A stretch of 64,000 bases of DNA from Escherichia phage EC.P1: the sequence record PQ657772.1; one strand, 5' to 3'. Shown one piece after another: positions 37,858 to 38,836 of the stretch. Made by a program: the position numbers and the translations under genes. Every line of letters begins with the position of its first letter. Position 1 is the first letter of the stretch. The notes beneath the pieces are model-generated. The model was not told where the DNA came from and searched no databases. It was given only the letters and a program-made list of their open reading frames with translations.

Positions 37858-38211
37858 ATGAATCAATATAATACTATTCCACCATTTATCACGGTAGTTC
37901 AGTGTGATGGTAAAACTTTCATTGGTATTATCAAGATAAAAAGTAAACAGTATACTACTCTTTACTGCTTTGATGATATGGATGAACCAATGCAAGATGA
38001 ATTGTTGGGTATAGCACATGATTGGTGGTGGCAAAGCAACAGGTCAATTCCAGTCTGTCTATTCTTCCAAGAAGAGATGGAGAAATTTGAACCTTACACA
38101 CAGAGATTCGATACCCCTGCGGTGAATTTCGTTTGTGGTCCAGTAGTTTCTTTAAGTGATTTGCCACAAAAACGCATCAAGCGTCGTAATGTGGCTCTTA
38201 AGAAGAAGTAA
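37858..38211 (+). CDS. hypothetical small basic protein (117 aa), lone plus-strand gene
   Basis: Only substantial ORF in the 400-bp gap between minus-strand genes; Trp-rich, basic C-terminus KRIKRRNVALKKK. Confidence 0.3.
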   Translation: MNQYNTIPPFITVVQCDGKTFIGIIKIKSKQYTTLYCFDDMDEPMQDELLGIAHDWWWQSNRSIPVCLFFQEEMEKFEPYTQRFDTPAVNFVCGPVVSLSDLPQKRIKRRNVALKKK

Positions 38212-38836
38212 GATGTTCAACTAAAGCGTTAAGTTGAACTACAATCATTAAGCTGTATGCATAAGCATGTGGCTTTTTGAAATATCGTAACTTATTTCCT
38301 GCTTGGTCTGTGCCAATAGTACTGTAATCCCATATAGTGGATTCAACTTCACTCCATGTATTCATACTTTGGCACTGCCTTTTTCCAGGACGAATCATTG
38401 CAATAAACATTGCAAGTTCATCAATGGATTTAGGTTTCCACACATTTAATAATGTAACGTGTTTTTTAATCTGTGAAAGATGTTCAACTATTTCTGGTTC
38501 TAACAGAAGATCCCAATTAGGTTCCTGATTCATTAGTTCTTTTAAATGTGCTCTATCACGAACATACTGGTAAGCCGATTGTGACAGGATATCTACCTTT
38601 TGATATCCCAAGCGTTCGGCTTCTTTATATTGTATGCTGGCTAAACCAGTGATAGGGTCAATTGGTATATTATCAAAATGAACACCACTGTTATGGGGGA
38701 TTAAACCATCCTCCGTAATTTTTTCTGTACTTCGCACACAAGGAAGCTGTGCAATCACTGACTTACTATCTTTAAAGTCAATGTCGATATCTGTTCGTGC
38801 TTTACGGTACGAATTAGAATTTGTCGAATCCTGCAT
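38198..38836 (-). CDS. DnaE (Pol III alpha)-like palm/fingers core fragment, miniaturised
   Basis: N-terminal RTDIDIDF (like DnaE catalytic PDFDVDF), then LGYQKVDILSQ (cf. GLVKFDFLGL), ELAMFIAMIRPG (cf. MIALVALFRPGP), KKPHAYAYSLM (cf. NKSHSAAYAL), in DnaE order; DnaE sequence recalled from memory. Confidence 0.45.
   Translation of the reverse strand: MQDSTNSNSYRKARTDIDIDFKDSKSVIAQLPCVRSTEKITEDGLIPHNSGVHFDNIPIDPITGLASIQYKEAERLGYQKVDILSQSAYQYVRDRAHLKELMNQEPNWDLLLEPEIVEHLSQIKKHVTLLNVWKPKSIDELAMFIAMIRPGKRQCQSMNTWSEVESTIWDYSTIGTDQAGNKLRYFKKPHAYAYSLMIVVQLNALVEHLTSS

Follow-up and report, generated by a model that had tools for sequence, protein, structure and literature searches.

The 64,000-nucleotide stretch of the genome of Escherichia phage EC.P1 analysed here (sequence record PQ657772.1; hereafter the window) carries an open reading frame (ORF), 38198..38836, that is almost certainly one half (C-half) of a split DnaE-type polymerase core, the other half (N-half) being encoded at 6504..7022. 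Together the two genes appear to specify a two-subunit accessory DNA polymerase of the replisome, the minimal C-family core of Rak2-like 'group 2.2' jumbo phages, a reading to which we assign a probability of roughly 0.85. The identification as such is already known: it was published in 2021 from sequence analysis and is present in PHROGs and RefSeq. An earlier interpretation of the window, made without database searches (hereafter the sequence-only reading), knew of no described T4-like counterpart, but a split minimal Pol III alpha had been described in the group 2.2 jumbo phages by Iyer, Anantharaman, Krishnan, Burroughs and Aravind (2021; Viruses 13:63; PMC7824862), and the window pair is the same entity, with no difference in kind. 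The window provides a confirmed and well-characterised example, to which the fused forms, the conserved neighbourhoods and a shared insertion site are added as leads.

The two genes and their motifs

In order to map the catalytic motifs, the two products were compared with Escherichia coli DnaE (reference dnaE taken from NC_000913), in which the landmarks are GRGS at 361-364, FLNPER at 391, PDFDVDF at 400, KFDFLGL at 553, RPG at 639-641 and NKSH at 757-760. The following features were located.

38198..38836, minus strand: gene for the C-half subunit of the predicted split minimal Pol III alpha; ATG start, 212 amino acids (aa)
38777..38791, minus strand: DIDID motif (D16/D18/D20), equivalent to E. 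coli DnaE D401/D403/D405 (catalytic DxD)
38591..38599, minus strand: K80-V-D82, equivalent to E. coli K553/D555, D555 being the third catalytic aspartate
38381..38392, minus strand: fingers motif R149-P-G-K152, equivalent to E. coli RPG 639-641
38267..38278, minus strand: fingers motif K187-K-P-H190, equivalent to E. coli NKSH 757-760
6504..7022, minus strand: gene for the N-half subunit; 172 aa, ending in EFLKW just short of the DnaE DxD
6597..6608, minus strand: GS motif of the N-half, G139-R-G-S142, a feature of the Pol-beta-like nucleotidyltransferase fold that corresponds to GRGS 361-364 in E. coli

The C-half thus has the motifs in DnaE order, as the sequence-only reading had proposed. 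It consists of the palm strands with the three metal-binding aspartates and of shortened fingers, lacks the thumb and contains nothing past the KSH helix. The GS motif (G363/S364 in E. coli) is absent from the C-half and present in the N-half as G141/S142, so that it could be supplied only in trans. The genes are separated by 31,175 bases, in agreement with the distance of about 31 kb noted previously.

Homology to DnaE and PolC

The N-half was matched by the Pfam family PF07733 (DNA_pol3_alpha) with 36.4 bits (cut-off 23.9) over residues 90-171, and by NCBIfam DnaE models at positions ~280-390. For the C-half taken alone, the match to the fingers family PF17657 (residues 129-162, the RPGK region) reached 13.7 bits, below the cut-off of 22, and the Pfam search of the C-half alone returned no PF07733 match. 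A single-sequence phmmer search of the PDB with the C-half gave no match. With a profile of 16 sequences the only hit was Mycobacterium tuberculosis DnaE1 (E=2), albeit in four collinear segments lying exactly at the four motifs, and hhalign placed the C-half profile on residues 545-643 of E. coli DnaE (D555 to RPG) with a probability of only 1.4%.

When the N-half and C-half sequences were joined in silico, the PF07733 score rose from 36.4 to 44.1 bits and the match was extended from residues 90-171 to 92-197. A family profile built from the joined sequences matched E. coli Pol III alpha (PDB ID: 2hnh) with an E-value of 1.4e-9, and the alignment was unbroken over positions 320-421, running from GPGRGS through FLNPERVSMPDFDVDF to the helix past the DxD, with the DIDID of the C-half opposite PDFDVDF. 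The two fingers motifs of the C-half, RPGK and KKPH, likewise fell in collinear segments of this match. Since the DnaE match extends over the junction after joining, the C-half continues where the N-half stops, as the sequence-only reading had placed it in DnaE coordinates. D16, D18 and D82 align with the E. coli catalytic carboxylates D401, D403 and D555.

The predicted structure models of both ORFs are of high confidence, and the strong fold-search matches of both halves were to DnaE and PolC only. The Pol-beta-like palm fold with fingers superposes on solved DnaE and PolC structures, with 186-190 of the 212 C-half residues superposing on the polymerase palm and fingers. Chance similarity was considered as an explanation and rejected.

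Relative to full-length DnaE the pair is drastically reduced, the two chains together comprising 384 aa as compared with a single chain of 1160 aa. The distance from the second to the third aspartate (D18 to D82) is 64 residues versus 152 in E. coli, i.e. ~88 fewer; according to the DnaE domain boundaries reportedly defined by Lamers and colleagues in 2006, this short spacing matches the loss of the thumb. RPG and K-x-H are 39 residues apart versus 119 in E. coli, making the fingers ~80 residues shorter, and only 22 residues follow the K-x-H motif. The two chains hold no sequence for, and gave no Pfam matches to, the PHP, thumb, beta-clamp-binding, OB and tau-binding domains; the sequence-only reading was right about the lack of PHP, beta-clamp and OB regions.

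Conservation, co-inheritance and the break point

Among 55 homologues of the C-half, with identities down to 40%, residues D16, D18, D20, K80, D82, R149, P150, K152, H190 and Y194 are invariant, and the GxGRGSS motif (G137, G139, R140, G141, S142, S143) is equally invariant in 52 homologues of the N-half. When the C-half profile was run with HMMER against 1.84 billion representative proteins (E up to 0.001), a family of 516 clusters at 50% identity emerged, nearly all of them stand-alone proteins of ~190-210 aa. In the phage database the C-half was found in 95 records and the N-half in 100, with the ORFs intact; the surplus N-half records are weak matches to ordinary phage DnaE. The gene is consequently not the orphan that it was taken for. 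The two ORFs also co-occur, the C-half/N-half counts being equal by genus (Escherichia 33/33, Pseudomonas 11/11, Salmonella 8/8, Erwinia 8/8, Xanthomonas 4/4, Yersinia 4/4), and their identities to the window proteins correlate with r=0.98 across 20 phages, which shows co-inheritance and not interaction. One record departs from this picture of intact genes: in Escherichia phage CMSTMSU (MH494197) the C-half (260196-260825) is in four pieces and the N-half (229549-229962) was matched at 81% coverage in two places, a fragmentation that looks like sequencing frameshifts and not real decay.

The two genes are always on the same strand, whereas their spacing ranges from 14 to 182 kb over the phages: 14 kb in Xoo-sp13 and CM1, 31 kb in Asteriusvirus, 34 kb in RaK2, GAP32 and CBB, 44 kb in PA5oct, 116 kb in SCTP-2 and 182 kb in Atu_ph07. 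No partner half was found within 10 kb in 80 IMG/VR loci per half (160 loci). In all 80 N-half loci the ORF stops 0-9 residues past the end of the homologous region, while members of the C-half family have 0-20 residues ahead of the DxD, many of them beginning M-DIDID. The break point is therefore fixed and old.

Natural single-chain forms

Two single chains containing both halves were encountered among the best 150 of the 516 clusters. Both (P0283 and P0375) are metagenomic, and their reading frames are intact on their own contigs.

Contig L004, 1066-2193: unsplit mini-DnaE gene, 375 aa
Contig L005 (JGI Ga0669126_0033275), 1516-4181: locus of an unsplit mini-DnaE gene, 336 aa

In P0283 (375 aa) the N-half aligns over residues 10-180 (E 9e-19) and the C-half over 190-374 (E 1e-32), and PF07733 matches residues 97-207, across the junction, with 59.6 bits. 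P0375 (336 aa) has the same layout. These natural fusions are direct evidence that both window proteins are parts of one functional unit. The P0375 gene overlaps by 4 nt with the end of a gene for a 552-aa protein with a PF03090 'Replicase' domain and a helix-turn-helix. Its contig, which is small and also has an endolysin-like PG_binding_1 gene, suggests a small element using the mini polymerase with its own initiator or primase.

A shared insertion site and a possible origin of the split

The weakest N-half matches led to Clostridium phage CS266P1 (OP172775, locus L167, 3032-6600), in which a full-size dnaE is annotated as two genes around a gene for an I-HmuI-like HNH endonuclease. The first dnaE gene ends with ...KLDFSRFMRKEKKKLP followed by a short read-through, and the second begins MDIDVDF. 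The insertion is positioned just ahead of the catalytic DxD codons (KKLP|DIDVDF), which is the same codon boundary as that of the jumbo-phage split. The joined CS266P1 protein aligned without gaps to residues 383-630 of Taq DnaE (E 4e-40), with KKLP|DIDVDF opposite VSMP|DIDTDF. The boundaries of the insertion fit the group I intron rules, in that the 5' splice site is preceded by U and the insertion ends with G. These rules and the seamless joined protein are the grounds on which it may be read as an intron; a Rfam scan of the insertion returned no group I intron at E up to 1.

A precedent is nrdA of Aeromonas phage Aeh1, which, according to the published accounts (Crona et al., NAR 2011, PMC3045599; review PMC2988022), is split by the homing endonuclease gene mobE. 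Considering the common codon boundary together with this precedent, fission driven by a homing endonuclease, with non-covalent reassembly of the products, would be a reasonable, albeit unproven, origin of the jumbo-phage split.

The GS region of the N-half also aligns near the C-terminal end of two PHROG families, at 387-438 of PHROG 7513 (461 positions) and at 339-409 of PHROG 13169 (463 positions). These families may correspond to the opening portions of further phage dnaE genes that are split or interrupted by introns.

Phage type and gene neighbourhoods

Escherichia phages Ecwhy_1, fEgEco12 and WPEC5 (350-380 kb) match the window region with 99.9% nucleotide identity, and for 121Q and PBECO4 the value is 86-87%. 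To judge from these identities, the source belongs to the Rak2-like/Asteriusvirus-type jumbo phages and has a replication core of the T4 type; it is not a T4-like phage proper, as the sequence-only reading had it. The T4-type core in the window includes a gp32-type single-stranded DNA-binding protein (PF08804), RecA/UvsX, UvsY (PF11056), a DnaQ-like exonuclease and a superfamily 2 (SF2) helicase, and the features of the group 2 core (family B polymerase, gp32-type single-stranded DNA-binding protein, UvsW-type helicase, clamp and clamp loader) were all found. The principal replication genes and neighbours of the two halves are as follows.

56213..59218, minus strand: family B DNA polymerase with a 3'-5' exonuclease domain, 1001 aa; PF03104 80.8 bits and PF00136 76 bits, both above cut-offs
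39140..39850, minus strand: C2H2-like Zn-finger protein, 236 aa, phrog_11058, with a single N-terminal finger and a helical body; upstream neighbour of the C-half
35712..36767, minus strand: DNA primase; phrog_47 'DNA primase', E 9e-29
34165..35685, minus strand: DnaB-like replicative helicase; PF03796 DnaB_C, E 4e-17
4460..6440, minus strand: array downstream of the N-half, with a 114-aa protein, phrog_14844 (6096..6440), a GroES-like protein (5766..6092) and the clamp-loader large subunit (4460..5413)

The family B polymerase is complete, as had been recognised before, and is presumed to be the main replicase of the phage. The genes for UvsX, UvsY, SF2 helicase and Zn-finger protein on one side of the C-half, and those for primase and DnaB helicase on the other, share its orientation, and this array recurs in 57-74 of 82 loci. 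On the same strand, 74 of these loci encode the phrog_11058 protein upstream (median start -1036 bp), 64 have the primase downstream (median +2.1 kb) and 57 the DnaB helicase downstream (median +3.5 kb); the other same-strand neighbours are a 165-aa protein (phrog_11279; 64 loci) and the SF2 helicase (59 loci). In the phrog_11058 protein C12, C15, H28, C30 and a G-x-x-S-P-W motif are invariant, and the PDB and Pfam matches cover the C2H2 finger only. Its conserved position beside the C-half makes it a candidate accessory factor. The N-half is followed on the same strand by the 114-aa protein in 76 of 80 loci, by the GroES-like protein in 73 and by the clamp loader (phrog_168 in the window) in 58, a tightly conserved arrangement.

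Scans for sigma-70-type promoters and terminators around the C-half found 59 against 51.8 +/- 6.8 in shuffled controls, i.e. no excess. The T4 late-promoter box TATAAATA occurs three times in the window (7.5 expected), with no occurrence upstream of either half.

Several overlapping or adjacent ORFs are annotated differently in fEgEco12. The 117-aa ORF at 37858..38211 on the plus strand, which matches phrog_11637 over its full length (E 6e-55), runs towards the C-half gene and shares 14 nt with its 3' end; at the same site fEgEco12 carries g382, a minus-strand ORF of 70 aa for which no PHROG match was obtained, and this annotation is probably on the wrong strand. The virion structural protein at 36823..38019 on the minus strand is 398 aa long as annotated in fEgEco12, whereas begun at 37800 it comprises 325 aa and matches phrog_14467 end to end (1-323 of 323), so that the annotated start has probably been set too far upstream. 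The 103-aa ORF at 6982..7293 on the minus strand, a full-length match to phrog_15348 (E 2e-52) without annotation in fEgEco12, has 41 nt in common with the start of the N-half gene.

Proposed enzyme and alternative explanations

In the proposed enzyme the N-half would contribute the opening part of the palm together with the nucleotide-binding GS loop, and the C-half would contribute the strands with the metal-binding D16, D18 and D82 as well as short fingers (RPG, K-x-H). In the Pol-beta-like fold, including the structures of DnaE and PolC, the GS loop and the carboxylate-bearing strands make up one active site. Because here the loop and the aspartates reside on separate proteins, neither half should be active alone, and because each half has an incomplete active site and no intein is present, the halves would have to associate non-covalently. 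The resulting heterodimer of ~44 kDa would correspond to residues ~280-780 of E. coli DnaE minus the thumb and some of the fingers. That the N-half and C-half physically assemble into an obligate heterodimer is very likely. Of the two fates allowed for in the sequence-only reading, trans-assembled heterodimer or relic, it is the former that is favoured by the invariant catalytic residues and by the natural fusions.

That the heterodimer acts as a DNA-templated DNA polymerase is somewhat less secure but still the favoured expectation, given that the fingers motifs have been kept and that the genes lie in a replication context. With the thumb and the clamp-binding parts gone, the enzyme probably is of low processivity or depends on partner proteins, and we envisage a polymerase of low intrinsic processivity working within the T4-type replication and recombination machinery beside the family B replicase. 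The gene context would place it on the primase-helicase side (lagging-strand synthesis or primer extension) or in gap filling during recombination-dependent replication. A role in primer extension or hand-off can be put forward only tentatively. A more elaborate proposal is rather unlikely as a whole: the enzyme would be a primase-coupled primer-extension polymerase, corresponding in phages to the eukaryotic Pol alpha or to B. subtilis DnaE, in which the Zn-finger protein replaces the thumb and clamp-binding domains, it would hand primers to the family B replicase, and the split would be what remains of a homing-endonuclease or intron insertion at the DxD-coding site, with the two exon-genes dispersed afterwards. 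It draws on the adjacency of the primase, helicase and Zn-finger genes, on the fused form beside the PF03090 gene and on the break in the Clostridium phage dnaE at the same codon boundary.

Several points weigh against the accessory polymerase. Taken alone, the C-half stays below significance in sequence profiles, and sequence methods alone do not settle it. The regions that DnaE uses for gripping DNA and for processivity are missing (thumb, PHP, clamp-binding, OB and tau-binding), so DNA-templated synthesis is not guaranteed, and no conserved C-terminal tail, and hence no evident clamp-binding peptide, was seen in the family of either half. The conservation of the neighbourhoods may reflect a stable order of phage core genes rather than functional coupling. 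Finally, no biochemical evidence for assembly or activity was found in the searchable literature.

The strongest competitor of the templated polymerase, although an improbable one, is a heterodimer that functions as a nucleotidyltransferase of another kind, i.e. a terminal transferase or tailing enzyme, a primer-synthesizing enzyme or a maker of nucleotide signals or DNA modifications. Pol-beta-fold nucleotidyltransferases are said, in the classification of Aravind and Koonin from 1999, to act on very diverse substrates, and such diversity speaks for this possibility, as do the disappearance of the thumb and of all DNA-clamping domains and the presence in the phage of a complete replicase, clamp and clamp loader. 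However, the RPG and K-x-H motifs are kept and invariant, and they belong to the fingers, the part of DnaE/PolC that binds the DNA template (Iyer et al. 2021; PMC7824862). The superposition of 186-190 of the 212 residues on palm and fingers is likewise at odds with a non-polymerase function, and so is the location of both genes amid replication genes, with one fused form next to a replicase/primase-type gene.

Decay of a bacterial dnaE acquired by the phage, with the two ORFs as its relics, is very improbable, and so is their reuse as non-catalytic structural or regulatory proteins. The drastic size reduction and the scattering of the halves, 14-182 kb apart depending on the phage, could be taken as signs of decay, but for each half, all catalytic residues are unchanged across more than 50 diverse sequences, the family amounts to 516 clusters, the ORFs are intact in 95-100 phage records and the models are of high confidence. 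Covalent joining of the halves, either by split-intein trans-splicing, for which the dnaE of Synechocystis, reportedly found by Wu, Hu and Liu in 1998 to be naturally split and joined by a split intein, offers a precedent, or into one chain by recoding, can be dismissed, as there is no room for intein fragments (0-9 extra residues in the N-half at 80/80 loci, 0-20 before the DxD in the C-half), neither an intein nor a Hint domain appeared in Pfam at E up to 10, and in none of the loci examined do the genes lie within 10 kb of each other. Both the relic and the intein explanations were accordingly rejected on the invariant catalytic residues, the intact ORFs and the lack of intein room.

If active, the accessory polymerase would rank as by far the smallest member of the C family (~384 residues in two chains, without a thumb) and a natural minimal model for the active site of the bacterial replicase. 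It would bear on whether C-family polymerases grew from a minimal core, as proposed by Iyer et al., or were reduced to one, and two unrelated polymerase families would then be at work simultaneously in large T4-type replisomes.

Comparison with known systems

The split minimal Pol III alpha of Iyer et al. (2021; PMC7824862) is a phage-specific catalytic module consisting of an N-terminal NTP-binding protein and a C-terminal protein binding Mg2+ and template. The genes of the two lie far apart, and the phages possess a family B polymerase as well but none of the remaining Pol III domains. These authors suggested synthesis of one strand, or repair, as its role, and proposed that C-family polymerases have grown from such a minimal core. 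The unsplit forms, the fixed break point, the Zn-finger neighbour, the neighbourhoods of the halves and the shared insertion site were not found in the text of that paper. PHROGs 11127 and 11778, as well as many records in GenBank and RefSeq, label the two genes 'DNA polymerase' or 'DNA polymerase III alpha'. Our literature searches found no experimental follow-up on the split enzyme, and the main text of the PA5oct transcriptome/proteome paper has nothing on these two genes.

With the structurally characterised DnaE and PolC enzymes (E. coli 2hnh/5fku, Thermus aquaticus 2hpi/3e0d, Geobacillus kaustophilus PolC 3f2b) the phage pair shares the palm fold and the order of the motifs (GS, aspartates, two fingers motifs). 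Unlike them, it is made of two chains and would assist a family B replicase instead of being the main replicase itself. A possible analogy, drawn from gene adjacency only (primase and helicase, and the PF03090 gene in one fused form), is with the DnaE of Bacillus subtilis or the eukaryotic Pol alpha as a second, non-processive, primase-associated polymerase; B. subtilis DnaE reportedly extends primers and hands them off to PolC, as is said to have been shown by Sanders and colleagues in 2010.

The cyanobacterial dnaE-n and dnaE-c genes (Synechocystis, Nostoc) are split elsewhere in the protein and the products are mended by protein trans-splicing. As in these bacteria, the dnaE coding sequence of the jumbo phages is shared out over two distant genes; in contrast to them, the phage pair has no intein fragments and is broken within the palm, between the GS motif and the DxD, which means that its assembly would have to be non-covalent. 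In this respect the closer parallel is NrdA of phage Aeh1, according to the published accounts (PMC3045599; PMC2988022): in both cases a large phage has a conserved enzyme gene with a break near the active site, and a non-covalent complex is presumed. The jumbo phages differ from Aeh1 in that neither break carries an endonuclease gene and the halves have come to lie 14-182 kb apart.

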